The translations under genes and the position numbers were made by a program. Below are positions 14,081 to 64,000 of a DNA stretch of 64,000 nt, one piece after another; position 1 is the first letter of the stretch; each line of letters begins with the position of its first letter. The notes under the pieces are model-generated. The model saw only the letters and a list, made by a program, of their open reading frames with translations, ran no database searches and was not told the DNA's origin. The stretch comes from an uncultured Acidobacteriota bacterium (GTDB taxonomy: Bacteria > Acidobacteriota > Thermoanaerobaculia > Multivoradales > JAGPDF01), in the NCBI GenBank assembly GCA_963803995.1, contig CAWDOT010000012.1:140822-204821 (forward strand), written 5' to 3'.

Positions 14081-14091
14081 CCGTCGCGCCG

Positions 14092-14364: not shown

Positions 14365-14366
14365 CC

Positions 14367-14732: not shown

Positions 14733-14754
14733 AGCAACTCGGAGAGGAGACTCG

Positions 14755-17228
<2,474 letters not shown>

Positions 17229-21327: not shown

Positions 21328-21432
21328 GTGGCGGGGATCCTACCCCGCGCCGAGAGGACCGGTGGGCGGCGAGGCCCGGAGCCTGTCATGCGGTCGCGTG
21401 GTTCCCCGTTCTCCCCTTCGAGGGGGAATCCG

Positions 21433-27401: not shown

Positions 27402-27446
27402 CGCGCGGTCGGGCGGGTTCGAGTTCGACTAGACTCCGCGCAGCCC

Positions 27447-36235: not shown

Positions 36236-36261
36236 GGTCCGGCCGACGATACCAGCGCCGC

Positions 36262-37591: not shown

Positions 37592-37745
37592 CGGGCGGCC
37601 CTCCGGAGCCGAGTGTACCGGTCTCGCCTGGACCCCGCCCCGCCCCAAGCGGCGGGCCGGAGCCGCGATAGGATTGGCGCCGGCGCGCCCGGGTCCCGGT
37701 CCGCTGGAGGCCGCCGCCGCACCGCCCGATTCCCAAGGAGGCTCG

Positions 37746-39854
<2,109 letters not shown>

Positions 39855-39893
39855 CCCCGCCTTCGCCACCGCCCCCGCCCCGAAGGGGAACCT

Positions 39894-39932
39894 GGGGACA
39901 GGCACCCGCGGTGCCTGTCCCCGTTTCTTTTC
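39894..39932 (+). terminator. Rho-independent terminator after the S9 peptidase gene
   Basis: GGGGACAGGCACC-CGC-GGTGCCTGTCCCC, a perfect 13-bp stem, followed by GTTTCTTTTC. It begins 40 nt after the stop codon. Confidence 0.8.
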
Positions 39933-39952
39933 AGCAGAAGCCGGAGGCCAGG

Positions 39953-40260
39953 AGCTAGAAGCTAGAAGCTAAAAGCTAAAAGCTAAAAGCGAAAAGCAAA
40001 AGCTCCAGTTAAGGGGTTGTGGGCGGGGCGTCCGTGGCTCGATCTGGCAGCGGTGGCGCCGCTGAGGTCGCGAGGTGCGGCGGGAGGCTTCTCGAGGACG
40101 AGCGGTCTCGGGCGGCCACGGCCGCTCGATGGAGCCACCATCGCCACGCCCACAACCCCTTAACTGGAGCTTTTGCTGTTTTCCTTTTTCTTTGCTCTCT
40201 GCCTTGGGCGTCCTGGCTTCGAGGCAGGCCCTGGAGCTCTCTGTCTCGGCGGTTCTTCTC
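39953..40260. repeat. Long-hairpin repeat element, copy C, with perfect 30-bp terminal inverted repeats
   Basis: GCAAAAGCTCCAGTTAAGGGGTTGTGGGCG (39996-40025) and its exact reverse complement (40147-40176). It is preceded by seven tandem 7-mers GCTARAA (39954-40002) and followed by a CT-only tract. Confidence 0.9.
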
Positions 40261-41277: not shown

Positions 41278-43612
41278 CTAGTTGCAGGGGAATCCGTCGC
41301 TGGTTCCGGTCGCGCCGATCGTCTGCGGATAGGAGCCGAGCGGATTGATGTAGTGCCGGACAGCGGAGCCGGCGGTGTCGCTGATCGTGACGTCGAAGCC
41401 CTGGTTGGTCAGGCCCGAGACGAACACCCAGTAGGCGTTGAACGGCGGCACGCAGGCGTCCACCATCTTCACGCCCATCTCGAAGTTCGCCGGGTCGAAG
41501 AACCACCAGAACGACGACTGGTCGGACGAGGCTCGCTGGCCGCCGAAGCTCATCACCTGAGCCGCGCCGGAGTCGGAGACCGTCGTCCAGTCGACCTCGA
41601 CCTGGAACCGGCCGCCCAGATGGCAGGCGGTGTCGGCGTCCGCGACGCAGGCCGTCGTGGCGTTCTCCGCCGTCGGCGCCAGCTTGCCGAGCAGCGAATC
41701 GCCGAGCGGGTCGATCGGCGTCGAGCCGAGAACCTTGCGGACCTGGGCCTCGGTCGGCTTCTCGTAGCGGGCGCCGGAGCCCGGCGTGCAGTCGAAGCCG
41801 GTGACGCCGTCGGTCGCGCCGATCGTCTGCGGGTAGTTGCCGAGCAGGTTCGGATAGGCGCGGGTCTGGCCCGTGAAGGTGTCGAGGATGGTGACCGCGT
41901 AGCCCTGGTTGGTCAGCCCCGAGACGAACACCCAGAAGCTGTCGTTGAAGGTGCAGGCGTCGACCATCTTGACGCCCATCTCGAAGTTGGCGTTGTCGAA
42001 GAAGTAGAAGAACGCCGACTGGTCCGACTCGGCGCGCGCGCCGTTGAAGCTCATCACCTGGCCGAGACCGGCAGACGACGCCGTCGTGTAGGCGACGTTG
42101 ACCTGGAAGCGGCCGCCGAGCAGGCAGGCATTCAGGTTCGACGGGCTGCAGGCGAGGTCGGGCCCGTTGATCACGAGGTCGCGCAGCTCGAGGCCGTCGC
42201 TGCGGCGCAGGAAGAGCGCGGGCACCGTGGTGTTGTCGGAGTCGCCGGCCATCGCGACCAAGTCCTCCGGACCGCCCGTCGAGGGAGTCTGCGCTGTTGT
42301 AGACGATCACCGCGGTGGCTCCGGCGGCGAGCGCGTTGTTGAACTTGTCGATGAACGGGCAGTCGTTGCGCTCGATCAGCACGATCTTTCCGGCGACGCT
42401 GTCGATCGCGGAGCAGGCGCGCGCCGGGTTGGCGATGACCACCTGGCCGGTCGGGATGACCGCGTTGTCGCCAAAGACCGGGGCGCCGAACGACGCGGCC
42501 TGCGCCTCCCACTCGCCGCCGCCCTCCGGGAAGAGCGCCTCGACCGAGGGCAGCTTCGCCCAGCCCGCCGACTCGGCCATCACATTGGCGCCGTCCCAGA
42601 CCACGTCCGGTCCGTTGACGATGGAGTCCTCGACGCTCCGCCTTGGTCATCTCGTCGAAGTGCTTGCCGGTCGAGTTGTCGAGAATGAACAGGTCGTAGA
42701 CGCCCGGGTCTTCGCCGCACGAACTCGCCGAAGTCCGGACTCGCCGAGTTGCGGTTGGTGAAGCTCGCGAACCCGATGCCGTGGCCGAGCTCGTGCAGGA
42801 GCACGTTGCTGAAGTTGATCTGGTCGCCGTTGTCGGAGTCCTGGCCGTAGTAGTAGCCGGCGCCGCCCAGGCAACCGTTGTCGTAGTCGATGTTCTCGTT
42901 GACGAAGACGATGATGTCGCCGGTCTCGAGGTCGCCGTCGCCGTCGAAGTCCCCTTCGGGCTTGACGTCCGGATCGCTCGACGACGTGAAGTCCGCCTCC
43001 GCGAGGTGCTCGCCGAGCATGGTGCCGGCCGTGACGTCCTTGCCGTCGAAAACGAAGCCGAAGTAGATGTAGGTCGGGCCGGCGGAGGCGAGCACCGCGC
43101 TCGTGGCGTCGCAGAAGCTGTCCCTGTGGACGGCCAGGACTTTGGTCGGGGTCGTCTTGCCGACCAGGCCGCCCCACTTGGCGAGCGCCTGCTCGAGCGC
43201 GAAGCGGCGCTGTTCGCCGAAGGTGGTCCCGGGGTTGCCCGGAGCCGCGGGCGCCGCGTCCGTCTCGTTGAAGCCGAAGCCCGGCTCGATCGAGGTACTC
43301 GACGGTGAAGTTCGACGTGCCGTCCGGGTAGCAGAGGTCGCGGAACAGCGGCATCGTGAGGTCGGTCTGGTGGAAGCCGAGCAGGTCGCTGATCGCCGGC
43401 CACATGAGCAGCGGCGAGGTGGCGAGGTCCCAGTGCGAGATCGAGGAGCCGCTGGTCGACGGGTTCGGCGCGTAGAGCTGGACGCGGCCGGCCTCGTCGG
43501 CGCCGGCGGGGATCGAGCCGAAGGTCACGACGGCGTCTGCGTAGGCGGTGCCGGCGCCGAGGGCGACGGCGCAGAGGGCGGCGAAAGAGGCGCGGAGGAG
43601 CGGGCGGTTCAT
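41278..43612 (-). pseudogene. Secreted zinc metalloprotease (HExxH) with a PA domain and two C-terminal four-Cys domains, four frameshifts
   Basis: ATG 43612 with a signal peptide (ASFAALCAVALGAGTAYA). Zincin motif VLLHELGHGIGF. PA domain GKIVLIERNDCPFIDKFNNALAAGATAVIVYNS. The two ~120-aa domains lie at 41788-42153 and 41281-41652. Shifts at about 43293, 42720, 42640 and 42265. Confidence 0.75.
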
Positions 43613-44142: not shown

Positions 44143-46182
44143 TCACTGGGTGCAGGGGAACCCGGTGTCGGCTCCCGTCGCGCCGATCGTCTGGGGGTAC
44201 TGGCCGAGCGGGTTGCGGTAGTGGCGGGTCAGGCCCGAGTGGGTGTCGGTGATCGCGACGTCGTAGGCCTGGTTGGTCAGGCCCGAGACGAAGACCCAGT
44301 AGGCATCGAACGGCGGCACGCAGGCGTCGACCATCTTGACGCCCATCTCGAAGTTGGCCGCGTCGAAGAACCACCAGAACGAGGACTGGTCGGACGCGGC
44401 GCGCTGGCCGTCGAAGCTCATGACCTGCGCGGCGCCGCCGTCGGAGAGGGTGGTCCAGTCGACCTCCACCTGGAAACGGCCGCCGAGCTGGCAGGCCGTG
44501 TCGGCGTCGGCGACGCAGACCGTGGGCTCGCCGCTCGGCGCGAGCAGCGTCACGACGAGCTGGTAGGCGCCCTCGCCGTCGAAGCGGTGAGCCAGGAAAT
44601 TCCAGGTCCCGGCCGCCGGAGCGTCGACCACGATCGACTCGATGGTGCTCGGATTCTGGGAGGCGGCGTCGAACTCGGTCACCGTGGGCTGCGCGCCGGC
44701 GCGCGCGTAGAGGTCGCCGTCGAGCGGTCCGAACAGGTCGCCGACCAGCGTCGCGCGCAGCTGCTGGGTGCCGGCCGGCACTTCGACCGCGAAGGTGTCG
44801 TCGTCGTCGCCGCCGGCGAGCGAATCGGTCGATCCGGAGGAGGTGGAGCCGCCCCCGATCGGCGCCGCTCCGCAGGCCGAGGTGCCGAGGTCGGCGCCGG
44901 CGGTCGCTTCGATCCAGGCGCGGTTGTCGGGGACGTCGGCGAAGAAGCTCTCGCCGGGCGGCTGGCAGTCGAGCGAAGTGGTTCCCGAGCCCACCCCCGC
45001 GAGGCGTTGCACGCCGCCCTGGGAGATCAGCAGGGAGGCGCCGCCGTCGCCCAGGCAGAGCCCCGACTCCGTGCCCGGCGCGCCGAGCGGGGCGGTGAGC
45101 TGGACACAGACCTGGTCGTCGTCCGGAACGATCGAGCAGGCCGCGGTGACCCCCTGACCGGCGCGCCGGATCCCGAACGAGAAGTCGAGGCCGCCGGTCG
45201 CGCCGTAGCCGACCAGCGTGGCGGACAGGCCGCTGCCGATCTCGTCGCCGGTCGCCAGCAGGGTCGGCGCCGCGCCGGGCACCGCTTCGGCGAGCGTGAT
45301 CAGCGCGAGGTCGTGGCCGAGGGCGAACTGGTAGTCGGAGTGGATCGTGATCCCCGCCAGTCCGAAGACGCCGTAGTGGGGGAGGAAAACCTGCTTGTCG
45401 TCGAGCGCGAGCAGCTCGTTGGCCTGAAGGCACTCCTCGCCGGTCAGATCCTGGCCGCAGATGCAGCTCGCCGCGGTGAGGAAGCTCGAGCAGCCGATCA
45501 GCGTGCCGCCGCAGCCGCCCTCGGGGGTCAGCAGCATGCCGGTGGCGGGGAAGTCGACCGAGGGCAGCGCGTTGACCAGGTGCTCGCGCGGCGCGGGCGC
45601 CGGCGCGGCGGCGGCCAGGGCGGCGGCCGGGAAGCGGGCCGCCAGCGGGTCGGCGGGCGCGGCGGCGAGCAGGGTCCGGACCTGATCGGGGGTCGGCGCG
45701 GGGGCAAGCGCTCCGCCGCCCGGCGTGCAGTCGAAGCCGCTGACGCCGTCGGTGGCGCCGATCGTCTGCGGATAGGTGCCGAGCGGATTCGAGTAGGTGC
45801 GGGTCTCGAGGGTGACGGTGTCCTGGATGGTCACCTCGAAAGCCTGGTTGGTGAGCCCCGAGACGAACACCCAGAAGCTGTCGTTGAAGGAGCAGGCGTC
45901 GACCATCTTGACGCCCATCTCGAAATTGGCGTTGTCGAAGAACCAGAAGAACGCCGACTGGTCCGACTCGGCGCGGGCGCCGTTGAAGCTCATCACGTTC
46001 GCCGCGCCGTTCGAACCGGCCGTGGTCCAGCCCACCTCGACGGCGAATCGGCCGGAGAGCAGACAGGCGGTGTCGGCGTCGGCGCCGCAGGCGGCGCGCG
46101 CGGGGACGGCGGCGAGCGGCAGCAGGAACGCCGCGGTGAGAAGCGCGGCCGCGCTGCCGGTCCCTCGGCTCTGGTGGCTCAT
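44143..46182 (-). CDS. Secreted trypsin-fold protein lacking catalytic His and Ser (pseudoprotease), with a PPC-like domain and flanking four-Cys domains
   Basis: Intact 679-aa ORF, ATG 46182 preceded by GGAGAGGAG, with a signal peptide. S1-fold blocks are present but altered: LTAASC where TAAHC is expected, HDLALITL (Asp kept), and CLGDGGASL where GDSGGP is expected. A pre-peptidase C-terminal-like module is DDDDTFAVEVPAGTQQLRATL...GAYQLVVTL. The four-Cys domains lie at 45727-46092 and 44146-44520. Confidence 0.8.
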   Translation of the reverse strand: MSHQSRGTGSAAALLTAAFLLPLAAVPARAACGADADTACLLSGRFAVEVGWTTAGSNGAANVMSFNGARAESDQSAFFWFFDNANFEMGVKMVDACSFNDSFWVFVSGLTNQAFEVTIQDTVTLETRTYSNPLGTYPQTIGATDGVSGFDCTPGGGALAPAPTPDQVRTLLAAAPADPLAARFPAAALAAAAPAPAPREHLVNALPSVDFPATGMLLTPEGGCGGTLIGCSSFLTAASCICGQDLTGEECLQANELLALDDKQVFLPHYGVFGLAGITIHSDYQFALGHDLALITLAEAVPGAAPTLLATGDEIGSGLSATLVGYGATGGLDFSFGIRRAGQGVTAACSIVPDDDQVCVQLTAPLGAPGTESGLCLGDGGASLLISQGGVQRLAGVGSGTTSLDCQPPGESFFADVPDNRAWIEATAGADLGTSACGAAPIGGGSTSSGSTDSLAGGDDDDTFAVEVPAGTQQLRATLVGDLFGPLDGDLYARAGAQPTVTEFDAASQNPSTIESIVVDAPAAGTWNFLAHRFDGEGAYQLVVTLLAPSGEPTVCVADADTACQLGGRFQVEVDWTTLSDGGAAQVMSFDGQRAASDQSSFWWFFDAANFEMGVKMVDACVPPFDAYWVFVSGLTNQAYDVAITDTHSGLTRHYRNPLGQYPQTIGATGADTGFPCTQ

Positions 46183-46208
46183 GGCGATCTCCTCTCCGGC
46201 GGCGCCGG

Positions 46209-48365
46209 TCAGTCCATCAGGGGCAAATAGGCGGACTCGGCGTACTCGCGCACCATGCGGTCGCTCGAGAACTTCGGCGTGATGGTGGCGATCGCCTCCT
46301 TCATCATCGCCACCCAGCGGCGCGGGATCTGCTGCTCGTCGCGGTCGTAATAGGCGGGCACGATCTGCTCCTCGAGCAGGTGGTAGAGCGCCAGGGCGTC
46401 CTCGCGGTCGCGCGCGGCGTCGTCGCCCGCCACCTCCTTGCCGGCGATCACCCAGCCGTTCCTGCCGTCGTGGCCCTCGGGCCACCAGCCGTCGGCGATC
46501 GAGCAGTTGAGGGCGCCGTTCATCGCCGCCTTCATGCCCGACGTGCCGGAGGCCTCGAGGGGCCGCTGCGGCGTGTTGAGCCAGACGTCGACGCCCTGGA
46601 CCAGCATGCGCGCCACCCGCATGTCGTAGTCCTCGACGAAGAAGACGCGTCCCTTCAGCTTGTCGGACTGCGAGAGCTGGAAGAGGTGGGCGATCAGGCC
46701 CTGCCCCTCCTTGTCGGCGGGGTGGGCCTTGCCGGCGAGCAGGATCTGCACCGGCCGCGCCGGGTCGGAGACGAGCTGGCGCAGGCGGTGGAGGTCGGAG
46801 AAGAGCAGGCCGGCGCGCTTGTAGGTCGCGAAGCGACGCGCGAAGCCGATGGTCAGGACCTCCGGATCGAACATCTGCTCGACATTGCGCAGCTCGTCGG
46901 GCGACAGCCCGTGGCGCGCGAACTGGTCGCGCAGGCGCGACCGCAGGAAGCGCGCCAGCCGCCGCTTCTGCTCGAGGTGGGCTTCCCAGAGCTCCTCGTC
47001 GGGACCCTCGAGGATGGCGACCTTGCCGGTCTCGCTGGCGAGCACCTGGGACCACTTCTCGCCGAACCAGCGCGCGAAGAGCTCCTGCAGCTCGACGCCC
47101 AGCCAGGTCGCGGGGTGGACGCCGTTGGTGACCGCGCGCATGCGCTCGGCCTCGGGCAGCGTCTCGGGCAGCAGGTGGTTCCACATCCGGGCCGAGACCT
47201 CGGCGTTCAGCTTCGAAACGCCGTTGACCCGCGCGCTCGTGCGCAGCGCGAGCGCGGTCATGTTGAACGGCTGGTTGGGCTCGCCGTGGTCGTTGTTGCC
47301 GAGCGCCAGCCAGCGCTCGGGCGGCACGCCGAGCGCGAGCCAGAAGCGCTCGAAGTACTTGCGCACGAGCGGCGGATCGAAGACCTCGTTGCCCGCGGGC
47401 ACCGGCGTGTGGGTGGTGAAGACCGAGCGCCGCCGGATGCCGGGGAGAATCGACTCGAAGTCGCCCTCGCCGGCCTCCATCGCGCGGCGGATCCGTTCGA
47501 ACTGGAGGAAGGCCGAGTGCCCTTCGTTCATGTGCCAGACGCTGGGCTCGATGCCGAGCGCCTCGAGCGCCCGCACGCCGCCGACGCCGAGCACCACCTC
47601 CTGCGCCAGCCGCATCTCGCGGCCCGGCGTGTAGAGCATCGAGGTGATCGGGCGGTCGGCGGAGTCGTTCTGCGGCACGTCGGTGTCGAGCAGCACGAGC
47701 GGCACGCGGCCGACCTGGGCCACCCAGACCAGCACCCGGATCTCGCGGTCGGGGAAGGGCACCGTGACGTGGACGACGCGTCCGGTGGGCCCCGACGCCG
47801 GCCGCACCGGCAGGCGCGAGAAGTCGTAGTCGGGGTAGTTGTGCTGCTGGCGGCCGTCGGCGTCGATGGTCTGCCGGAAGTAGCCGTTGCGGTAGAGCAG
47901 GCCGACGCCGACCAGGGGCAGGCCGAGGTCGCTCGCGCTCTTCAGGTGGTCGCCGGCGAGGACGCCGAGGCCCCCGGAGTAGAGCCGGAGCGACTGGTGC
48001 AGGCCGAACTCCATGCAGAAGTAGGCGATGGTCCCCCTGGCCTCGGGAAAACGGCGGGCGAACCAGGTCTCCGCGGGTTCCGCCGTGTAGCGCTCGAACG
48101 CCTGCGTCACCTGGCGGTAAGCGGCGACGAAGCTGTCGTCCTCGAGCCGGGACTGCCAGTGGGTGCGGTCGAAGTTGATCAGGAGCTGCACCGGGTTGCG
48201 GTAGAGCGCCCAGGCGCGGCTGTCGATCTGATTGAAGAGGGCACGCGCCCGCGGGCTCCACGACCACCAGAGGTTGTAGGCGAGGTCGTAGAGCTTGGCC
48301 ACCTCGCGCGGCAGGTCGATGTCGGCGATGTGCAGGCGGGGGATCGGCTTCCAGTCTCGGGTCAT
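46209..48365 (-). CDS. glgP: Alpha-glucan (maltodextrin/glycogen) phosphorylase, short GT35 type
   Basis: Intact 718-aa ORF. N-terminal DUF3417-like LAYNLWWSWSPRARALF, GGLGVLAGDHLKSASDLG, AGKAHPADKEGQ, and the PLP-Lys region EASGTSGMKAAMNGALN. Confidence 0.9.
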   Translation of the reverse strand: MTRDWKPIPRLHIADIDLPREVAKLYDLAYNLWWSWSPRARALFNQIDSRAWALYRNPVQLLINFDRTHWQSRLEDDSFVAAYRQVTQAFERYTAEPAETWFARRFPEARGTIAYFCMEFGLHQSLRLYSGGLGVLAGDHLKSASDLGLPLVGVGLLYRNGYFRQTIDADGRQQHNYPDYDFSRLPVRPASGPTGRVVHVTVPFPDREIRVLVWVAQVGRVPLVLLDTDVPQNDSADRPITSMLYTPGREMRLAQEVVLGVGGVRALEALGIEPSVWHMNEGHSAFLQFERIRRAMEAGEGDFESILPGIRRRSVFTTHTPVPAGNEVFDPPLVRKYFERFWLALGVPPERWLALGNNDHGEPNQPFNMTALALRTSARVNGVSKLNAEVSARMWNHLLPETLPEAERMRAVTNGVHPATWLGVELQELFARWFGEKWSQVLASETGKVAILEGPDEELWEAHLEQKRRLARFLRSRLRDQFARHGLSPDELRNVEQMFDPEVLTIGFARRFATYKRAGLLFSDLHRLRQLVSDPARPVQILLAGKAHPADKEGQGLIAHLFQLSQSDKLKGRVFFVEDYDMRVARMLVQGVDVWLNTPQRPLEASGTSGMKAAMNGALNCSIADGWWPEGHDGRNGWVIAGKEVAGDDAARDREDALALYHLLEEQIVPAYYDRDEQQIPRRWVAMMKEAIATITPKFSSDRMVREYAESAYLPLMD

Positions 48366-48381
48366 CGAGTCTCTCTTCGAA

Positions 48382-50665
48382 TCAGTCCTCGGGCGGTCGC
48401 GCCCACTCGGGCTCGATCTCGGGGAACGGCAGGTCGAGGTCCGCCCAGGCCGGGAGGCGGCGCGCGCGGGGTCCGAGGTCGATCACTTCGCGCAGTCGCG
48501 CGCAGTGCTCGCGGAAGCGCATCTCGGCGTAGTCGCGCCCGGTACCCATGGTGACCAGGAAGGGCCAGTCCGAAGCCGCGGCGAGCAGGAGCTGGTTGAG
48601 GATCGTCCGCCGCCACTTGCGCGACCCGCCCCAGCGCACGGCGGCGAAGGCGCGCCGCTCGAGGTCGGCGAGCTCCCACCAGAACCACTCGGTCTCGGGG
48701 TTGACCCAGACCCGATGATCGCCGCCGGCGCCCCACGAGCCCTCGGCGAAGAAGGCGCGGCGCAGCGCCGGCTGGGCGTCGAGCTCGTGGGACGGCGTGG
48801 TCGCCTCCACCGCGGCGCCGGGCGCCGCCAGCTCGAGCACCCGCTCGAGCCAGACCGGACCCTCGAACCACCAGTGCCCGAACAGCTCCATGTCGAAGGG
48901 CGCGCAGACCACGCCACCGCCCATGCCGTCGAGGCCGGCCGCCAGCGCGAGGAAGTGCTCCGCCTGCTCGTGGGCGCGCGCGCGCGCGTCCTCCGGCCAG
49001 TAGACCAGCTTGTCCGCCATGTCGACCTGGCTCTGGGTCACGCGCCAGAGGCGCAGCCCGGAAGGCCAGTGGCGCTTGTGGAAGTCGAGGAAGGCGCCGT
49101 CGCCCGGATAGCCGCCCTGGCTCGACCAGACCTGCGCGGCGCTGCGCGCGTCGCGCAGGAACGCCGCGACGGCGCTCTGGCGGATCCAGTAGGGGCGGGG
49201 GTGCGGTCCGCCCGGCTCGACCACCTGGTCGGGCGGCAGCTGGGAGCCGTAGGGGAAGGCGGGGTCGCCGGCGCGCACCAGGTGGGCGTCGACCACCGTC
49301 CAGTTGAGCCCCTGTTCGGCGAGGAAGAGCTCGTTGCCGGGGCGGCTCTCCTCGGAGGCGCCGGTGACCGGATGGCGCCAGGGCCCCCCCGGCCGGTAGG
49401 CGCACTCCGGCATCCAGCAGCCGCGCGGATCGATGCCGAACAGCTCGCGGTGGCTCTCGCGCCCGGCGCGCAGCGCCAGCCGGATCAGCTTCGAGGTGTG
49501 CGCGAGCGGCAGGTAGACGTGAGTGCCGGCCGAGGTGGAGAGCTCGATCGTGTCGTTCTCGGCGAGCGCCGCGAGCGCCGTCACGAGGTTCTTGTCGAAG
49601 GACTCCCAGAGCCCCTTCAGCCGCTGGTACTCGCCGTGCCACCAGAGGGCGAGCGGGTGGCGCTTGCGCGTCTCCCAGGCGGCCTTGGCGCGCTCGGCGA
49701 GATAGCGGTCGACGACGCCGACCGTGCGCGGGTCGGCGAGCATGGCGCCGACCACCGGGGTCACCGAGACCGTCGCGACGTGGCGTCGCCCCTTCCCGCC
49801 CAGCCGCCGGAAGACGTCGAGGAGCGGTAGGTAGCAGTGCGCGATCGCCTCCGCCAGCCAGTCCTCGCCGTGGGGCCAGGTGCCGTGGCCGAGCACCCAG
49901 GGCAGGTGCATGTGGAGGACGAAAGCGATCCGGCGCGGCGAACCGTCGACGCGGCCGGAGGCGGCGGCCGTGAAGGCGGGCGGCTCGAGCGGCGGCCGCT
50001 GCTTGAACTGGGAAGAGGATCCGCTCGCGCTCGGCCGCGCTGAGCCGGACGCCGGCGGCGGCCGCGGGCCCGACCGGCGCCTCCGGTTCGCTCCCGCCCT
50101 CGGCCCCGCCGCCGACCTCGACTCCGCCCCCGACCCCGACCGGGACGCCCACTTCGCCCGGCTCGGGCTGGAACTCGACCGGCGTCGTCAGCACCGAGCG
50201 CGGCGGCGGCTCCGGCCTGGCCGCCTCGCCAGCGAGCTTAGGCAACTCGGCGAAAGGAGGGAGGCCAGCCCGGGACGGAGGCTGGTCTTCGGAAGGCAAA
50301 AGCTCCATAGAAGGGGTCGTGGCGGGCGAGGCGCCCTTGCGAGTCCGGCGCTTCGTGGGGGCGGCAGCGCCCTCCGGTTTGGCCTTGGCAGCCGCCTTGC
50401 CCTTTGCGCCCGACCCGGCCTTCGAATCCGGTTCGCCACGCCTGCCGGCGGCGGCCGCTGCGCTCGCCTTTACGCCCTTTCCTTGGGCTCCCGCTGCCTT
50501 CTTCGGGCTGGTGGCGGTCCGGCGGCGGCGCGACTCCGCGTTCGGAAGCCCCGAACTCGCCTCGGCAGCTTCAGCGACCTCGACCGCAGGCTTTTTTTCC
50601 TTAACTGGGCTTTTGCTGTTCTTTACTTTGGGCGTGCTTCCCTTCGCCTTCGGCCGGTCGCTCAT
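48382..50665 (-). pseudogene. GH57 1,4-alpha-glucan branching enzyme with a ~230-aa Lys/Ala/Pro-rich N-terminal extension, one frameshift
   Basis: GH57 core IAFVLHMHLPWVLGHGTWPHGEDWL, GCWMPECAY and FDMELFGHWWFEG (ORF 48382..49911). No start codon lies in frame just upstream of the core. The only ATG (50665, ATGA overlap with the DHH stop) opens a different frame that meets the core frame at about 50005. The extension is therefore plausible but unproven. Confidence 0.7.
50296..50640. repeat. Long-hairpin repeat element, copy D, inside the putative N-extension coding region
   Basis: Left end GCAAAAGCTCCATAGAAGGGG (50296-50316). Right end CCTTAACTGGGCTTTTGC (50599-50616) plus TGTTCTTTACTTTGGGCGT, similar to the copy C right flank TGTTTTCC...CCTTGGGCGT. 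Confidence 0.65.
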
Positions 50666-51795
50666 CGCGCTCGCTCGCTTTCCGCCGCGGCGCGCGCTTC
50701 GCGCGCCACGTCGCCGCCGTTGGGCTCGATCGGCGCCTCGCGCGCGGCGCGCGCGGGCGCGACTTCGAGCGGCAGGAGCTTGTCGGGGTTCTTGCGCAGC
50801 GCGGCGGCGAAGCGGCGAGCGAGCTGGCGCTCGACGGTCCGGGTCGTTTCCGGGTGGAGCTCGTCGACCACGATGAAACCGCCGGCGAGGGTGCCGTGAC
50901 CGCCGCCCTTGCCGCGCTTGCCGATCAGCCGGCGCATCAGGTTGCCGGCGTCGGCGCGCGGATTGGTCGTCCGGATCGACAGGTAGAGCCGGTCGCCGTG
51001 GCTGCCGGTGCAGAGCGACCAGGTCTTGCCCTCCATCCGCAGCAGCAGGTCGGCGATCTCCGGCACGATGTCCGGCTGGTCGACGCGGCCGAGGTTGGAG
51101 ACGATCAGATTGCCGACGCCGGCCAGACCCTCGATCGCGCGGTGGAGGATCTGGAAGTAGGAGAAGGGGAGCCGCGCGGTCTGAATGCGCGCCAGCATCC
51201 GGCGGTCGATGCGCGGCAGCAGGCGGTCGTACGCGGCGTGGTCGGGGCCCGCGGCCTCCCGGCCGAAATCCTGGGTCTCGGAGCGGATCGCGTAGACCAG
51301 GCCGGTCGCCAGCGCCCGCGGCGGCGCGATCCCGGCGGCCTCGAGGTACTCGGCGAGGATCGTCGCGGTGGCGCCATAGGCGGGGCGGACGTCCGCCAGC
51401 CGCGCCGACTGGGTCGCCTTGCGCATCGGGTGGTGGTCGATCACGAGGTCCGGCACGACCCCCTTGGGCAGCTGCGAGTTCCCGGTCCAGGGCTGGCAGT
51501 CGACCAGCGCGAAGTGCTGATAGTCGCGTCTCTTCAAATGCCGCAGGTGCGAAAGCTCCAGCTTCAGGCTGCGCACCATCTCCCGGTTCTCGGCCCGCCC
51601 GATCATGCCGCCGTAGGCGACGGTGGTCCGACGCCGGAAGCGCCGCCGGAGGATCAACGACAGCACCGCGGTCGCCGCCAGGGCGTCCGGGTCGGGGTTG
51701 TCGTGGGTGAGTACCAGCCAGCGGGCGCGGGGCGAAGTGGCTTCGACCTCAGCGGCGAAGGCGGCGAATCGCGCCCTCGTCTCGTCGCTCGTCAT
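50662..51795 (-). CDS. DHH-family phosphoesterase (NrnA-like)
   Basis: 377 aa. Motifs THDNPDPDALA, VIDHHP (DHH) and GKGGGHGTLAG (DHHA1 GGGH). Confidence 0.85.
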   Translation of the reverse strand: MTSDETRARFAAFAAEVEATSPRARWLVLTHDNPDPDALAATAVLSLILRRRFRRRTTVAYGGMIGRAENREMVRSLKLELSHLRHLKRRDYQHFALVDCQPWTGNSQLPKGVVPDLVIDHHPMRKATQSARLADVRPAYGATATILAEYLEAAGIAPPRALATGLVYAIRSETQDFGREAAGPDHAAYDRLLPRIDRRMLARIQTARLPFSYFQILHRAIEGLAGVGNLIVSNLGRVDQPDIVPEIADLLLRMEGKTWSLCTGSHGDRLYLSIRTTNPRADAGNLMRRLIGKRGKGGGHGTLAGGFIVVDELHPETTRTVERQLARRFAAALRKNPDKLLPLEVAPARAAREAPIEPNGGDVAREARAAAESERAR

Positions 51796-51868
51796 CGGGT
51801 GAGGATCCTAGCATCCGGGCCTCCACCCCTCCGCTATACTTCCCGCGCCTTCAGCCGAGGCCGCCCGC

Positions 51869-53094
51869 ATGAAAAGAGTGCTTTTCCTCTCCCCCGGATA
51901 CCCGAGCGAGATGCCGCAGTTCGTGCGCGGCCTCGGCGAGGTCGGCGCGGCCGTCTACGGCGTCGGCGACCAGGCCGAGGGAATGCTGCCCGCCGCGGTC
52001 CGGCGCACCCTCTCGGGTTACCTCCGGGTGTCCTCGTTGTGGGACGAGGAGGCCGTCGTCGCGGCGGTCCGGGAGTGGCGCGAGCTGGGGGCCCCCGACC
52101 GTGTCGAGTGCCTCTGGGAACCGGGCATGCTGCTCGCCGCGCGGCTCCGCGAGGCCCTGGGAGCCCCCGGGCTCGGGGTCGAGCGGACCATTCCGTTCCG
52201 CAACAAGGAGCGGATGAAGCAGGTGCTCGACGCCGCCGGGATCCGCACTCCCCGCCACCAGGCGGCGCAGAGCGCGGCCGGGATCTGGGAGGCCGCCGAG
52301 CGGATCGGCTTTCCCGCTGATCGTCAAGCCGATCGCCGGGGCGGGCTCGGCGGACACCCATCGGGTCGAGAACCGCGACGAGCTGGCGCGCGTGGTCGCC
52401 GCCGTCCGCGCACGTCGAGGAGGTCTCGCGTCGAGGAGTTCGTCGACGGCGAGGAGTACACCTACGACACGGTCTCGATCCGGGCGTGCCGGTCTACCAC
52501 AACATCGCCTGGTACCGGCCGCGGCCGCTGGTGGCGCGCACCAACGAGTGGATCAGCCCGCAGGTGGTGGCGCTGCGCCACCCCGACCAGCCGGCAGCTC
52601 GCCGCGCGGCGTCGAGATGGGGCGGGCGGTGCTCGCCGCGCTCGGCTTCGAGTACGGGGTTCACCCACATGGAGTGGTACCACAAGGCCGATGGCGAGGT
52701 CGTGTTCGGGGAGATCGGCGGCCGGCCGCCGGGCGCGCACCAGGTCGACCAGATGAACTACGCCTGCGAGCTCGACGTCTTCCGCGGCTGGGCCGAGGCG
52801 GTCGTCCACGGCAGCTTCACGCAGCCGGTCGAGCGGCGCTACAACGTCGCCAACGTCTACAAGCGCGCCGAGGGCGAGGGGCGCATCGCGCGCGTCGAGG
52901 GGCTCGACGGGTTCAAGCGCCGCCATGGCGCGGCCGTGGTCTGGGACAACCTCCTGCCGGTCGGGGCCCGCCGGCGCAACTGGAAGCAGACGCTGGTGTC
53001 GGACGGCTTCCTGGTGATCCGCCATCCCGACCTCGCCACCACGCTCGCGATGGCCGACGAGTTCGGCCGCGAGGTGCGGCTCTACGCCGCCTGA
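51869..53094 (+). pseudogene. ATP-grasp ligase paralog 1, at least 6 frameshifts
   Basis: MKRVLFLSPGYPSEMPQFV..., FRNKERMKQVLDAAGIRTP, IGFP/LIVKPIAGAGSAD, VEEFVDGEEYTYDTVSI, GFTHMEWYHKADGEVVFGEIGGRPPGA, ending REVRLYAA-stop 53092-53094. Shifts at about 52314, 52400, 52420, 52480, 52605 and 52657. Confidence 0.8.
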
Positions 53095-53101
53095 GGAGAG
53101 C

Positions 53102-54346
53102 ATGCCGAACGTCGTCTTCGTAGCCCCCTTCTTCCTCGACACGACGCTGCGCTTCGTCGACTCGGTCGCGTCGCTCGCGGGCGTGCGGACCGGCGCTGGT
53201 CAGCCAGGACCCGGCCGACAAGCTCCCGCCCGGGCTGAAGAGCCGCCTCGATTCCCACCGGCGCGTCGGCGACGGCCTCGACCCCCGTCAGATCGCCGAG
53301 GCGACCCGCTCGATCGCCCGCGAATGGGGCGGGAAGGTGGACCGGCTGATCGGCGCGCTCGAACAGCTGCAGGTGCCGCTCGGCGAGGTGCGCGAGGCGC
53401 TCGGGATCGAGGGCATGGGCGCCGAGACGGCGCGCAACTTCCGCGACAAGGCGCGCATGAAGGACGTGCTGCGCGCGGCAGGGCCTGCCCTGCGCTCGCC
53501 ACGCGCGCCTGACCGACGACCGAGGCGGCCTGGCGCTTCGCCGAGCGAGGTCGGCTACCCGCTGGTGCTCAAGCCGCCGGCCGGTGCGGGCGCCAAGTCG
53601 ACCTTCCGGATCGCCGACGCCGAGCGAGCTGCGCGAAGCGCTCGCCGCTGGCGCGGCCGACGCGCGGAGCGGCCGGCGGTGCGTCGAGGAGTTCGTCATC
53701 GGCGACGAGCACTCGCTTCGACACCGTGCTCGATCCGCGGCCGCGCCGTCTGGCACTCGATCTCCCACTACCTGCCGGCGCCGCTGCACGTGGTCGACAA
53801 CCCGTGGATCCAGTGGTGCGTGGTGTCGCCGCGCGAGATCGACCACCCCCGCTACGACGAGATCCGCAAGGTCGGGCTCGCGCCGCGCTCGAGGCGCTCG
53901 GCATGGGCACCGGCCTCTCGCACATGGAGTGGTTCCGGCGCCCGGACGGCCGGGTCGCGGTCTCCGAGGTCGGGGCGCGGCCGCCGGGCGCGCAGATCAC
54001 GTCGCTGATCTCCTACGCCCACGACCTCGACTTCTACCGGGCCTGGGGCCGGCTGGTGGTGTTCGACCAGTTCGACGCCGCCGCAGCGCGCTTACGCCGC
54101 CGGCGCCGCCTACCTGCGCGGCCAGGGCGAAGGGCGGGTCCGCGCCATCCACGGGCATCGAACCGGCGCCGCGCCGGCTCGGCGACCTGGTGGTCGAGAA
54201 GCGGCTGCCGCAGATCGGGCCAGTCGCCCTCGGCGAGCTACGAGGGCGACGGCTACGTGATCGTCCGCCACCGCGAGACGCGGGCGGTGGACGGAGCGCG
54301 TCTGAAATGTCCTGATCTCGCGAACGTCCGAGTGGAGCTGGGATGA
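53102..54346 (+). pseudogene. ATP-grasp ligase paralog 2 (more divergent), about 10 frameshifts
   Basis: ATG 53102 after GAGGAGAG. MPNVVFVAPFFLDTTLRFV, FRDKARMKDVLRAAG, VGYPLVLKPPAGAGAKSTF, VEEFVIGDEHSFDTV, LSHMEWFRRPDGRVAVSEVGARPPGAQI, ending NVRVELG-stop 54344-54346. The sequence is readable only by hopping frames between about 53195 and 54200. Confidence 0.75.
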
Positions 54347-54350
54347 GCGC

Positions 54351-55571
54351 ATGAACATCCTCATGATCTCGCCGGGCTACCCGGCGGAGATGACCTACTT
54401 CACCCGCGCCCTCGCCGCGGTCGGCGCGCGGGTCATCGGCGTCGGCGACCAGCCGCGCGACGGCGCTGCCCGCAGATGGCCCGCGAGCACGTCGCCCACT
54501 ACCTGCAGGTCCGCTCGCTCTGGGACGAGCCGGCGGTGGTGCGCGAGGTGCACGAAGCTGGCTCACCAGGTGCGCATCGACCGGGTCGAGTGCCTGTGGG
54601 AGCCGGGCATGATCCTCGCGGCGCGGCTGCGCGAGGCGCTCGGCCTGCCCGGCATGGACGTGGCGCAGACGATGCCCTTCCGCGACAAGGAAGTGATGAA
54701 GCAGGTGCTCGACGCCGCCGGCATCCGCACGCCGCACCACCACCGGGCGCTGACTCGGACCAGGTGCGCGAGGCCGCCGAGCGGATCGGCTACCCGCTGA
54801 TCGTCAAGCCGATCGCCGGCGCCGGCTCGGCCGACACCTACCGCGGCGACAGTCGCGCCGAGCTCGAGCGCGCGCTGCCCATGGTCCGGCACGTCGAAGA
54901 GGTCAGCGTCGAGGAGTTCATCGACGGCGAGGAGTTCACCTTCGACACGATCTGCGCCGACGGGCGAGATCCTGTTCGAGAACGTCTGCTGGTACCGGCC
55001 GCGGCCGCTCGTCCAGCGCCAGAACGAGTGGATCAGCCCGCAGACGGTCGCGCTGCGCGACCTCGACCAGCCCGACCTCGCGGCGGGCCGGCGCATGGGA
55101 CGCGAGGTGCTCCGCGCGCTCGGCTTCCGCACCGGCTTCACCCACATGGAGTGGTACCGCAAGGCCGACGGCGAGGTGGTGTTCGGCGAGATCGGCGGCC
55201 GGCCGCCCGGCGCGCGCACGGTCGACGTCATGAACTACTGCACCGACAACGACATCTACGCCGCGTGGGCGGAGGCCGTCGTCCACGGCCGCGTCGAGCG
55301 CCGCTTCGAGCGCAAGTGGAACGTGGTCTGCACCTTCAAGCGGGCCCAGGGTCAGGGGCACATCCAGCGCATCGTCGGGCTCGACAAGGTCCTGCACGAC
55401 CTCGGGCCCTTCGTCGTCGAGGTCGACCTCACCCCGGTCGGCGCGCCGCGCAAGAACTGGAAGCTGTCGATCGTCAGCGACGGTTACGTCGTCGTCCGCC
55501 ATCCCGAGCTCGGCCCGGCGCTCGCCATGGGCGACCGCATCGCCCGCGAAGTCCACCTCTACGCCGGCTGA
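54351..55571 (+). pseudogene. ATP-grasp ligase paralog 3, at least 4 frameshifts
   Basis: MNILMISPGYPAEMTYFT, FRDKEVMKQVLDAAGIRTP, IGYPLIVKPIAGAGSADTY, VEEFIDGEEFTFDTICADG, GFTHMEWYRKADGEVVFGEIGGRPPGA, ending REVHLYAG-stop. Shifts at about 54460, 54560, 54750 and 54965. About 90% nucleotide identity to paralog 1 in the FTHMEWY block. Confidence 0.8.
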
Positions 55572-55647
55572 GGCCGGTCCGCCGCCCACCGGCGCCGGCG
55601 GCGAACCGATTCGGCGCTTTTCCGTATCTCCTGCTGGAGGAGTTCCC

Positions 55648-58600
55648 ATGTCCCGATTCCGTCTGCTCGCCCCCGGTCTGCTCCTGTCATCCGTCCTCGC
55701 GCTCTCCGGCCGCCCGGCCGCGGGCGCCGATCCCGCCCTCTGGCTGCGCAGCCCGGCGATCTCGCCGGACGGGTCGACCATCGCCTTCAGCTACCGGGGC
55801 GATCTCTGGACCGTGCCGGCGGGCGGTGGCGCCGCCACGCCGCGCACGCTGAACGCCGGCTACGAGACCGCACCGGTCTGGTCGCCGGACGGCAGCCGGA
55901 TCGCCTTTGCCTCGGACCGCTACGGGAACTTCGACGTCTTCGTGATGCCGGCCGGCGGCGGCGAGGCGACCCGCCTCACGTTCCATTCGGCCGACGACGT
56001 TCCGACCAGCTTCACCCCCGACGGCAAGGGGGTGCTCTTCTCCTCGGCGCGGCTCGACGCCGTGACCAACGCCCAGTACCCCAGCCCGGCCCAGCCCGAG
56101 CTCTACCGGGTGGAGCTCGCCGGCGGCATGCCGGTCCAGGTGCTCTCGACGCCGGCCCCCTATGCCGTCTGGGACCGCGCCGGGGAGCGCCTCGCCTACT
56201 CCGACCAGAAGGGCTACGAGATGGAGTGGCGCAAGCACGACAACTCCTCCTTCGCCCGCGACGTCTGGATCTGGGACCGCGCGGCGAACAGCCACCGGCG
56301 GCTGACCGCCCTCGGCTACGACGATCGGCAGCCGGTCTGGGCGCCGGACCAGGGTTCGCTCTTCTATCTGTCGGAGAAGAGCGGCAGCTTCAATGTCTGG
56401 AAGCTCTCGCTCGAGGATCCCGAGCACCCGGTCCAGGTCACCACCCACGCCACGCATCCGGTTCGCTTCCTCTCCGCCTCGGCGGCGGGGGACCTCTGCT
56501 ACACCTGGGACGGCGAGATCTGGGTGCGCCCGGCCGGCGCCGCCGACAGCCGCAGGCTCGAGGTGAGCGCGGCGGTCGACCGTCGCGACCTCGCGATGGC
56601 GCCGGTCGACGTCGCGAGCGAGATCTCCGAGTTCGCGCTCTCGCCGAACGGCGAGGAGATCGCCTTCGTGGCCCGTGGCGAGGTGTTCGTCGCCTCGGTC
56701 GAGCACGGCGTGACCCGCCGCATCACCGACACGCCCGGCCAGGAGCGCTCGGTGACCTTCTCGCCCGACGGCAAGAGCCTGCTCTATGCCGCCGAGCGGG
56801 GTTCGAGCTGGGACGTCTACCGCACCGACCGCACCGATCCGCAGGAGCCGGCCTTCTTCAACGCCACGGCGCTCAGGGAGAGCGCCGTCGTCGCCACGGA
56901 CGCCGAGGAGTTCCAGCCCCGCTTCTCGCCCGACGGCAAGGAGGTCGCCTATCTCGAGGAGCGCACCGAGCTCAAGGTGATCCAGCTGGCGAGCGGCAAG
57001 ACCCGCGTCCTGCTGCCGGGCGACAGGAACTACTCCTACGCCGACGGCGACCAGTGGTACGAGTGGTCGCCGGACGGACAGTGGGTGGCGGTCCAGTTCC
57101 TCTCGCCGACGCGCTGGTCCTCCGAGGTCGGCCTGGTGCCCGCCTCCGGCCAGGGCGAGGTGATCAACATCAGCAGGAGCGGCTACGAGGACTCGTTCCC
57201 GCGCTGGGCCGGCAAGGGCGAGCTGCTGCTCTGGGCGAGCGACCGCCACGGCGCGCGCGAGCAGGCGGGATGGCCGCGCGAGCAGGACGTCTTCGCCGCC
57301 TTCCTGACCCGCAAGGCCTGGGATCGCTTCGGGCTCGACGAGGCGGGCTATGCCCAGCTCGTCGAGAAGGAGAAGGAGGCGGAGAAGAAGAAGGACGGGG
57401 AGAAGGACAAAGGCAAGGAGAAGGTCAAGGGCGAGGAGAAGGCGGGCGACAAGGCGGCGGGCGCGGAGGAGAAGGCGGTCAAGCTGCCCGACCCGGTGAC
57501 GCTCGAGCTCGAGGCGATCGAGGACCGCGTCGTCCGCATCTCGATGCACTCGGCCGACCTCGCCGCCGCCGACCTGACTCCGGACCGCGAGACGCTGGTC
57601 TACCTGGCGCGCTTCGAGAAGGGCTACGACCTCTGGAAGTACACGCCGCGCAGCAAGGAGATCGAGCTCGTCGCCAAGCTCGGGGCCGAACGCTCGGCCG
57701 ACCTCCGGCTCATCGCCGAGGGCAAGAAGGCGATCGTGCTCGCCGACGACCATCTGGTCGAAGTCGACCTCGAGTCGGGCAAGACCAAGCCGGTCAGGGT
57801 CGCCGCCCGGCTCGAGCTCAAGGCCGCCGAGGAGCGCGCGGCGCTGTTCGAGCACGCCTGGCGCCAGACCTGGAAGAAGTTCTACGTGGACACGATGCAC
57901 GGCGTCGACTGGCCGGCGATGAAGGCCGCCTACGCCCGCTTCCTGCCCTACATCGACAACAACCGGGACTTCGCCGAGCTGATCTCGGAGATGCAGGGCG
58001 AGCTCAACGCCTCGCACACCGGCGGGCGCTACCGGCCGACGCGGCCGGACGCCGACGTCACCGCCGCGCTCGGCTTCTTCCCCGACCCGGCCTGGAGTGG
58101 CGCCGGCGTGAAGATCGCCGAGGTGCTCGAGGGGGGGCCGCTGCAGCAGGCCGCGACCAGGGTGAAGAACGGGGTGGTGATCGAGGCGATCGACGGCGGG
58201 AGGATCGAGCCCGGCGCCAACTGGTACCCCCTGCTCAACCGCAAGGCGGGCAGCCGCGTACGCCTCGCCCTCTTCGACCCGCAGTCCGCGAATCCCGCGG
58301 CCGCGCGCTGGGAGGAGACGGTCAAGCCGATCACGCCGCAGGAGCAGGCGCCTCTGCTCTACGAGCGCTGGGTGCGCGCGCGCCGCGCCGACGTCGAGCG
58401 GCTGTCGGGCGGCCGCATCGGCTACGCCCACATCCGGGGCATGAACGACGGCGCCTACCGGGAGATCTTCGAGGAGATCTTCGGCCGCGCCGTCGACAAG
58501 GAGGCGATCGTGCTCGACACGCGCTTCAACGGCGGCGGCAACCTCGTCGAGCCCCTCACCGTCTTCCTGTCGGGCCAGGTCTACTACCGGTCGGTCCCGC

Positions 58601-58970
58601 GCGGCCGGCAGATCGGCGTCGAGCCGGGCTTCCGGTGGACGAAGCCCTCGATCGTGGTGATGAACGAGGGCAACTACTCCGACGCCCACTGTTTCCCGAC
58701 CGCCTACAAGGCGCTCGGTCTGGGCGAGACGGTCGGCATGCAGGTGCCGGGCACCTGCACGTCGGTCTGGTGGGAGCGGCTGCAGGACAAGACGCTGACC
58801 TTCGGCATCCCGGAGGTCGGGTACCTCGACGCGGCCGGCGACTACACGGAGAACAAACACCTCGACCCGGACTATCCGGTCGACAACGATCCGGCGCTCG
58901 AGGCGGGGGGCGGGATCAGGAGATCGAGAAGGCGGTCGAGGTCCTGCTCGGCAAGCTCGGCGCGCACTGA
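55648..58970 (+). pseudogene. Tricorn-protease-like secreted peptidase (TolB-type propellers, PDZ, S41 domain), one frameshift
   Basis: ATG 55648 after GGAGG, with a signal peptide. N-terminus LWLRSPAISPDGSTIAFSYRGDLWTVPAGGG and repeated SPDG blades. C-terminal S41-like region IRGMNDGAY, TRFNGGGNLVE and MNEGNYSDAHCF. A frameshift in a G-run at about 58900 precedes the tail RDQEIEKAVEVLLGKLGAH-stop 58968-58970. Confidence 0.8.
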
Positions 58971-59160: not shown

Positions 59161-59846
59161 CTACGCTGTCGCCAGTTGACGCGCCGGGGGCAGGTTCGGC
59201 CGCGAGACCATCGTGTAGATCAGGTCGTCTTCGACTTTCCACCAGCCGGCGCAGCTGCCGACGGGGGCCCAGTCGGCGGCGAAGGAGCGCCAGCCGCAAC
59301 GCGGGCCATCGTTCCCGAAGCGGACCTCGACCTCGCGCGGGTCGACGCGCAGGCCCCGCCGCGCGAGCTTCAGCACGCTCTCCTTGGCGCTCCAGATCCG
59401 GTTGGCGACGGCGTCGCGTTCGGCGCCCGAGTGCGCGGCCCAGAGCTGGCGCTCGGCGCCGGTGAGGAAGTCGGCGACGAAGGCCGGGCTGCGCGCCTCC
59501 ACGAGCTCGAGGTCGCAGCCGACCTCGACGCCGGCGGCGCCGACCACGGCGAGGGCGCGCTCGCCGCGGTGGGAGATCGAAAGCGAAACACGCAACGGCT
59601 GGCTCCGATAGTGCGCCAGAGGGGCGCCCGCCGCGTCGGGCAGGATGGCGAGTGCCGGCCAGGTCGTCGCGATCGCCGGCAGCCCGAGGTAGCTGGCGAG
59701 GGCGCGCTTGGCGGTCCACCGGCCGAGCCGCCAGTCGTTGCGCCGGGACGGCACGGCAGCGGCACCGAGCAGGTCCTTCTCGGTCTCGGCGATCCAGGCG
59801 TCGCCGGCCGGCACTCCGGCGGCGTGCCCGTCGAGCCACCCCCAGG

Positions 59847-59850
<4 letters not shown>
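59161..59850 (-). CDS. 4'-phosphopantetheinyl transferase (Sfp type)
   Basis: 229 aa with a GTG start at 59850 that overlaps the upstream stop (GTGA). PPTase motifs ISHRGERALAVV, GCDLELVE and WSAKESVLK. Confidence 0.85.

Positions 59851-64000
<4,150 letters not shown>

Follow-up and report, generated by a model that had tools for sequence, protein, structure and literature searches.

Three tandem ATP-grasp ligase genes of an acidobacterial genome belong to a widespread three-clade family and adjoin a glycogen operon

Three ATP-grasp ligase genes stand in tandem at positions 51869-55571 of a 64,000-nucleotide stretch of DNA from an uncultured Acidobacteriota bacterium (GenBank assembly GCA_963803995.1, contig CAWDOT010000012.1, positions 140,822-204,821 of the forward strand), here referred to as the window. 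This study indicates that the triad is one arrangement of a slowly evolving family of ligases that has no named function in Pfam, NCBIfam, the source annotations, or the searched literature. In this lineage, the triad faces an operon for glycogen metabolism, and the nearest structures are those of L-amino-acid ligases (LALs). With moderate confidence, the three genes are interpreted as encoding ligases that work in sequence or as a heteromer and whose product, a small peptide or a polyamide resembling cyanophycin, is connected with storage metabolism. The identity of this product is far less certain than the enzyme class and the non-involvement of the tricorn-type protease gene that follows the triad. 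The chemistry is ordinary (ATP-grasp, LAL-like); what is unusual is that it belongs to a conserved, multi-paralog, uncharacterized system.

The three genes have the following coordinates in the window:

51869-53094, plus strand: ATP-grasp gene 1; clade A, subtype A1; about 406 codons once repaired; seven frameshifts
53102-54346, plus strand: ATP-grasp gene 2; clade B; about 411 codons once repaired; 13 frameshifts
54351-55571, plus strand: ATP-grasp gene 3; clade A, subtype A2; 405 codons once repaired; four frameshifts

Gene 1 runs from the ATG at 51869 to the stop codon at 53092-53094, gene 2 from the ATG at 53102 to the stop at 54344-54346, and gene 3 from the ATG at 54351 to the stop at 55569-55571, while the next ATG, that of the tricorn gene, is found at 55648. 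These boundaries, obtained by reading all three frames, agree with the same-strand arrangement and the gaps given in the first-pass annotation, i.e., 7 nt between genes 1 and 2, 4 nt between genes 2 and 3, and 76 nt between gene 3 and the tricorn gene. The length of about 405-415 codons reported there holds for the repaired proteins (405-411 codons) and not for the open reading frames (ORFs), as none of the three is intact. All ATP-grasp motifs listed before were recovered, namely FR(N/D)K..MK, KPxAGAG, EEF(V/I)xG(E/D)E, and HMEW(Y/F)...(G/S)E(I/V)GxRPPG, with KPPAGAGAK and SEVGARPPG as the variants of gene 2. None of the three corrected proteins has lost the nucleotide/Mg motifs (the KPxAGAG lysine, the EEFxxGE hinge, and the acidic residues and arginine of HMEW...ExGxR), which do not vary among 17 A-type and 19 B-type homologs, and from these residues all three window proteins look catalytically competent. 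Genes 1 and 3 are close relatives and gene 2 has diverged, as was noticed at first inspection: genes 1 and 3 share 89% nucleotide identity in their best 100-nt stretch, 74% overall, and 62% at the protein level, and gene 2 shares 55-59% (nucleotide) and 35-39% (protein) with either of them. Identities to the orthologs at locus L001 are 69% for gene 1 (A1), 66% for gene 2 (B), and 78% for gene 3 (A2). The G+C content of the window is about 72%.

Placement of the proteins by profiles and by structure gave a consistent picture. The stitched proteins exceeded the Pfam gathering scores of PF13535 (ATP-grasp_4; 35.0 bits, cut-off 27), PF02222 (ATP-grasp; 27.6 and 29.3 bits, cut-off 27), PF02655 (ATP-grasp_3; 24.1 and 33.0 bits, cut-off 23.2), and PF18130 (ATPgrasp_N; 39.4 bits, cut-off 27), with gene 1 matching ATP-grasp_4, ATP-grasp, and others, and gene 3 encoding ATPgrasp_N plus ATP-grasp domains; beyond these generic ATP-grasp domains and ATPgrasp_N, Pfam gave no match. 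A phmmer search against the PDB returned 3vot (BL00235; E 3e-16), 4wd3 (RizA; 2.8e-14), and BacD (1.8e-7). AlphaFold models of an A ortholog (P0006, 78% identical to gene 3; pLDDT 88.5) and a B ortholog (P0154, 72% identical to gene 2; pLDDT 90.2) had 3vot, 4wd3, 3wnz, and 3vmm (BL00235, RizA, and BacD) as their best Foldseek matches, with TM scores of 0.73-0.81 for both models and 0.77-0.81 for the A model; PurT and PurK came next. The earlier assignment of the three proteins to stand-alone, LAL-type ATP-grasp enzymes is thus retained for fold and chemistry, with 3vot, 4wd3, and BacD as best matches, and is given up as far as membership in a characterized LAL ortholog group is concerned.

The triad is not peculiar to one lineage. 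It is one arrangement of a three-clade family that is spread over at least nine phyla. Homologs at E <= 1e-10 number at least 7900 each for A and B, and they are named just "ATP-grasp domain-containing protein" or carry automated PurT or biotin-carboxylase labels. A scan of species-representative genomes yielded 80 species-level loci, which come from Acidobacteriota, Actinomycetota, Gammaproteobacteria, Gemmatimonadota, Planctomycetota, Myxococcota, Dormibacterota, Eisenbacteria, and unclassified lineages. In a neighbor-joining tree of 204 sequences, three clean clades are formed, A (89 sequences), B (66), and C (49), and they represent ancient paralogs. A-type proteins of different phyla are 55-63% identical. 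In a library clustered at 50% identity, just 238 representatives reach E <= 1e-30, so that the family as a whole is a slowly evolving one. A literature search on ATP-grasp, glycogen, LAL, and S51/cyanophycinase neighborhoods found no description of the family or of its gene cluster.

Within this family, the window has the order A-B-A (A1-B-A2). Gene 1 (A1) groups with the orthologs of close relatives, and then with an acidobacterial locus that has no B gene (L078) and with "solo" A genes of Gammaproteobacteria; the neighbors of gene 3 (A2) in the tree are A genes that are located after B. In 65 loci, B is followed by A on the same strand with a median spacer of 6 nt, overlaps of 1 or 4 nt being common, and genes 2 and 3 of the window, 4 nt apart, show the same tight adjacency. 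This spacing suggests co-translation of B and A, and either a complex or consecutive steps. The proposal made at first inspection, that the ligases act stepwise or form a hetero-oligomer, is plausible in view of this coupling.

The first-pass annotation had recognized no pathway partner in the window, and this needs to be revised, as the triad is accompanied in six of six close relatives by a DHH/GH57/glucan phosphorylase operon, found at 46209-51795 in the window. The operon and the control region that separates it from the triad consist of the following features:

46209-48365, minus strand: alpha-glucan phosphorylase (Pfam DUF3417 + Phosphorylase); intact; 77% identical to the L084 ortholog, 717 residues
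48382-50665, minus strand: GH57-type glucan branching enzyme; one frameshift near 50040; same position in relatives
50662-51795, minus strand: DHH/DHHA1 phosphoesterase (Pfam DHH, DHHA1); first gene of the divergent operon; 81% identical to the L084 ortholog
51796-51868, no strand assigned: divergent control region of 73 nt between the DHH operon and the triad; TATACT -10-like hexamer at 51835-51840

In tblastn, residues 219-763 of the GH57 protein of L084 (Glyco_hydro_57 + BE_C) match 48385-50013 with 79% identity, and the 767-aa ORF at 48362-50665, which is out of frame over most of GH57, has no Pfam match. The divergent arrangement of GlgP-GH57-DHH and A1-B-A2 is identical in the six close relatives (L001, L004, L063, and L084-86), including the position and orientation of the DHH gene; their triads are all intact, with proteins of 405-413 aa (that of L084 at 8770-12444), and their divergent spacers measure roughly 70-100 nt. 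The lineage (Acidobacteriota, Thermoanaerobaculia-like) carries A1-B-A2 as one operon. An alignment of the spacers of the window, L084, L001, L004, and L063 revealed a conserved (G/T)(C/A/T)TA(T/G)ACT about 28-35 nt upstream of the A1 start. A generic promoter/terminator scan of 51500-56000 made no calls, and the TATACT-like hexamer is taken as a promoter lead only.

Glycogen genes (GlgA, GlgB, GlgC, GlgP, or GH57) lie no more than 10 kb from the family in 22 of the 80 species, i.e., in 22 of the 42 outside Actinomycetota, and this adjacency recurs in at least seven non-actinobacterial phyla. As a rough estimate, glycogen adjacency would be expected in a few per cent of random 20-kb windows. 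Upstream of the glucan phosphorylase gene of the window, secreted trypsin/PPC-type protease genes contain four copies of a C-terminal domain of about 125 aa (41284-41667, 41788-42129, 44152-44517, and 45727-46101, minus strand), which share 69-75% identity with the end of a 446-aa L084 protein.

In other phyla, the family is found in wider gene neighborhoods, for which neighbors were counted by tblastn in a sample of 50 loci with full flanks (47 of them species-level loci). In about two thirds of these loci, a divergent operon lies opposite the B-A pair and comprises a C-type ligase (33 loci), a 314-aa S51-family protein (28), a PF00756 esterase (32), a 246-aa hydrolase-like protein (31), and often a fourth, Ddl-like ATP-grasp protein (20). 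An M20 dipeptidase gene is present in 11 of the 50, and either this gene or GlgB is often located after A. S51 is the peptidase family of cyanophycinase and dipeptidase E. Homologs of the S51-like neighbor match PF03575 in 24 of 26 cases and have an invariant GxSAG-like motif, and a PDB sequence search with this protein returned noise only. The PF00756 esterase carries an E-set/Enterochelin_N-like N-domain.

The extended cluster is seen in L039, L081, L083, L030, L050, L013, and about 30 more loci, at a distance of about 1-7 kb upstream of B. The hydrolase-like, Ddl-like ATP-grasp, esterase, S51, and C-type genes are on one strand, and B, A, and M20/GlgB on the other; none of the genes of the extended cluster has a named function. 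A second architecture is represented by loci without B in Gammaproteobacteria/Proteobacteria (L013, L018, L023, L051, L062, L076, and L079), in which a C-type ligase and GlgA, together on one strand, face a single A1-like ligase and the hydrolase genes are 5-10 kb off.

Based on these observations, the following mechanism is proposed. With ATP and Mg, each enzyme would convert a carboxylate to its acyl-phosphate, which would then be coupled to an amine. B and A would either form a heteromer or catalyze successive steps, and an extra A-type enzyme, as in the window, would add or replace one step. The product would be a cyanophycin-like polyamide or a small peptide made without ribosomes, with a storage or stress use in parallel with glycogen, and in other phyla it would be turned over by the S51-family and M20 peptidases, perhaps also by the esterases. 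A more far-reaching proposal, which we consider doubtful, is that A, B, and C together with the S51, M20, and esterase proteins form the synthesis and turnover machinery of an undescribed, widespread metabolite, either a cyanophycin-like storage polyamide produced by stand-alone LAL-type ligases or an amino-acyl or carboxyl-ester decoration of glycogen; if this were true, the triad described here would represent a minimal version of the synthetase that is wired to the glycogen operon.

Several points weigh against a ligase set that makes a storage-related peptide or polyamide. The S51, M20, esterase, and hydrolase genes and the C-type ligase were not found in the 64-kb window by tblastn, and the hydrolase genes and the C-type ligase are also missing from the flanks of the closest relatives; the bearing of the hydrolase cluster on this lineage is therefore indirect. 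What the lineage of the window has in place of the divergent C-type/hydrolase set is a second A-type gene. Glycogen genes adjoin the family in none of the 38 actinomycetotal loci. A and B could be independent enzymes instead of a complex, and we infer the peptide or polyamide product from fold and neighbors alone. The triad itself contains 24 frameshifts packed in 3.7 kb beside clean neighbors, which is odd for random sequencing error, and a very recent inactivation may be compatible with the single sequence available.

The frameshifts deserve closer attention. Resequencing had been advised in the first-pass annotation, though without a count of the breaks. A mechanical ORF list over 51869-55571 contains fragments of 136-295 aa only and no intact triad gene, and the third-position GC signal jumps frame every 100-400 nt across this region. 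Using frameshift-aware dynamic programming of the intact L084 ortholog proteins against the window DNA, 24 breaks were counted (7 + 13 + 4), of which 22 are insertions of 1 or 2 nt and two are deletions; gene 1 has six insertions and one deletion, and all 13 breaks of gene 2 are insertions. A nucleotide alignment with three orthologous triads gave a similar result, with 24 insertions among 26 indels whose length is not a multiple of three. If the three genes were truly inactivated pseudogenes in this genome, the density of the breaks next to nearly clean genes for GlgP, most of GH57, DHH, and the tricorn protease would be explained, and so would the absence of the C-type ligase and the hydrolase partners from the window. 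Such an inactivation is nevertheless improbable. The three corrected proteins contain no in-frame stops; of the residues without variation among 17 A-type homologs from several phyla, gene 3 retains 130 of 130, and of those without variation among 19 B-type homologs, gene 2 retains 113 of 114, which in a leave-one-out test is as good as for any genuine member. Third-position GC is preserved at 0.9-1.0 within every triad fragment, and all three genes are intact in the six relatives. Pseudogene decay in bacteria is deletion-biased and raw long-read consensus is insertion-rich, so that 22 insertions versus two deletions is the opposite of what decay would leave.

Frame switching is also patchy elsewhere in the window, which suggests uneven consensus quality of the assembly. 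No window-specific frameshifts were found in 46209-50038, which covers the glucan phosphorylase gene and most of GH57. In a map of third-position GC, frame-switch patches are dense at about 13000-16300, 35300-40000, 42200-43600, and 51900-55000, and 46200-50000, 55800-58900, and 59900-64000 are clean. Because of the insertion excess, the intact constrained residues, and the preserved codon bias, the 24 triad frameshifts most likely arose as errors in the assembly consensus and not through old decay, and the real genes are probably intact. Programmed frameshifting was considered as well and rejected, as 24 sites without a common motif make it implausible.

A different chemistry can be imagined for the same enzymes, in which the ligases would esterify hydroxyls of alpha-glucan or glycogen with an amino acid or another carboxylate and the co-clustered esterases would remove these groups. 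D-Ala-D-lactate ligase and microviridin ligases form esters, and the recurrent adjacency to GlgA, GlgB, GlgC, GlgP, and GH57 genes would be in line with a glucan substrate, as would the two esterase-type genes of the extended cluster, one of which is the PF00756 protein with the E-set/Enterochelin_N-like N-domain. However, the S51 and M20 peptidases of the same clusters point to amide bonds, the nearest structures are those of free-amino-acid ligases, and the 38 actinomycetotal loci, which are all without glycogen genes, have kept the esterases. As we also know of no precedent for a glucan-esterifying ligase of this kind, glucan esterification is considered decidedly improbable.

The gene that follows the triad was proposed at first inspection to form one module with it. 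The features downstream of gene 3 are:

55567-55625, plus strand: GC-rich hairpin then GCUUUUCC; in the gap between gene 3 and the tricorn gene; weak terminator-like; fold -38.6 kcal/mol, z-score -1.5
55648-58970, plus strand: predicted secreted tricorn-type S41 protease; about 1100 aa; Pfam PD40, Tricorn_C1, PDZ_Tricorn, Peptidase_S41

The description of the protein as a secreted tricorn/S41-type protease of about 1100 aa, 76 nt downstream of the triad, was borne out by its full domain set, i.e., PD40 (145.8 bits), Tricorn_C1 (68.0), Peptidase_S41 (60.9), and PDZ_Tricorn (23.9, borderline against a cut-off of 25), and by a signal-peptide-like N-terminus, from which the protease is probably exported. 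Its S41 domain is unrelated to Peptidase_S51. Near the end of the gene (58880-58970) there is one frame change: the long ORF continues to 59115 in the wrong frame, and the frame ending at 58970 gives a plausible tricorn C-terminus.

The link between the ligases and this protease did not survive a survey of gene neighborhoods. A module that builds a peptide with the three ligases and processes or recycles it with the protease would fit the common strand, the gap of 76 nt, and the lack of a strongly called terminator in between. Against this, in all 83 related loci, the six with identical triads among them, the ligases have no tricorn ortholog at a distance of up to 10 kb; the relatives with an examined flank (L001 and L084-86) have a convergent FAD-oxidase gene and MgtE downstream of the triad, and none of these downstream genes occurs anywhere in the 64-kb window. 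Synteny with the relatives stops directly after gene 3, where the window continues with the tricorn gene and then, on the opposite strand, a phosphopantetheinyl transferase and a single-chain acetyl-CoA carboxylase. The signal-peptide-like N-terminus of the protease sets it apart from the cytoplasmic-type ligases. The GC hairpin with its U-run in the gap argues weakly in the same direction; it was not called by the terminator scan and is suggestive only as a terminator. By this comparison of loci, the tricorn adjacency is specific to this genome and the protease is a chance neighbor, which makes a joint module very unlikely.

Further downstream, an Sfp-type 4'-phosphopantetheinyl transferase gene (59161-59880, minus strand) overlaps the end of the acetyl-CoA-carboxylase-like gene (59847-63884+, minus strand), which encodes biotinyl, ACC_central, and carboxyltransferase domains in a eukaryote-style single chain and runs toward the end of the window. 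At 23-32 kb from the ligases, the window also contains an M20 peptidase gene (27402-28649, plus strand) and an amino-acid permease gene (19948-21339, minus strand). These two are probably unrelated to the triad, because the cluster-type M20 dipeptidase found no tblastn match in the window. The rest of the window has ordinary chromosomal content, e.g., SMC, PyrB/PyrC, a TonB receptor, and a permease, and Rfam and tRNA scans of the whole window gave no matches.

Membership in families with a named function was assessed with the curated NCBIfam models, and all scores were far below the cut-offs, LALs remaining the nearest relatives. Scores were 23-27 bits for BacD (NF053745) and DdaF (NF041595), with cut-offs of 850 and 840, respectively; 25-42 bits for CphA (TIGR02068; cut-off 850), where the generic ATP-grasp segment alone aligns; 27-36 bits for purT (TIGR01142; 502); 22-27 bits for purK (TIGR01161; 318); about 20 bits for accC (biotin carboxylase; 626); and at most 46, 30, and 27 bits for Ddl (243), RimK (143), and LysX (276). 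Membership in the CphA, Ddl, RimK, and LysX families was rejected on these grounds. It is scarcely credible that the triad represents extra copies of PurT, PurK, or biotin carboxylase, as the JGI labels of homologs ("formate-dependent GAR transformylase" or "biotin carboxylase") and the second-best structural matches (PurT and PurK) might suggest, or maturases of ribosomally made peptides (graspetides), given the purT, purK, and accC scores, the absence of the C-terminal domain of biotin carboxylase from the triad proteins, the housekeeping-type neighborhoods of the family, and spacers in and around the operon (73, 7, 4, and 76 nt) that are too short for a precursor peptide. For the operon and its borders, the same spacers uphold the earlier observation that no precursor-peptide gene is present. 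A microviridin-type ligase was likewise rejected, as there is no adjacent precursor gene and, over 65 loci, B and A are separated by a median of 6 nt.

For the window itself, it follows that the protease link is spurious and that the gene breaks are probably sequence errors, and the family is a good target for function discovery. An identity of about 60% between phyla, thousands of members, and three paralogs that are kept together imply an important product. The glycogen genes and the cyanophycinase-family and dipeptidase-type hydrolases nearby lead to the testable idea of a new storage or stress peptide or polymer, and culturable hosts of the family are available in Microlunatus ginsengisoli (e.g., JCM 16929), Geodermatophilus (e.g., sp. 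CPCC 206100), Actinoplanes, and Pseudonocardia.

Four known systems can be compared with the genes described here, namely, I) tricorn proteases, II) the PurT/PurK/biotin carboxylase branch, III) the cyanophycin system, and IV) LALs. The fourth gene shares with tricorn protease (Thermoplasma TRI and bacterial homologs) the PD40 beta-propellers, Tricorn_C1, PDZ, and S41 domains and a size of about 1100 aa; unlike that system, it has a signal-peptide-like N-terminus, is probably exported, and has no conserved tie to ligases. The PurT/PurK/biotin carboxylase branch is alike in overall fold and differs in genomic context, in addition to the curated models scoring far below cut-off. The cyanophycin system (CphA; CphB/CphE of family S51; dipeptidases) resembles the clusters of other phyla in combining ATP-grasp enzymes, an S51 hydrolase, and a dipeptidase, in a glycogen-adjacent storage context. 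In contrast to CphA, the triad proteins lack both the Mur-ligase-like M domain and the N domain and are about 400 aa long, versus about 870 aa; the S51-like and M20 genes of those clusters are moreover absent from this window. LALs (BL00235 of Bacillus licheniformis, 3vot; RizA, 4wd3; BacD/YwfE, 3vmm/3wnz) have in common with the triad the three-domain ATP-grasp architecture including ATPgrasp_N, the E-x-G-x-R catalytic motif, and a size of about 400 aa, at just 15-23% identity to the models of the triad family in Foldseek alignments. Known LALs are single enzymes in antibiotic clusters of few taxa, whereas the triad family consists of multiple paralogs (A/B/C) that are 55-63% conserved over at least nine phyla and are found in storage-metabolism neighborhoods.

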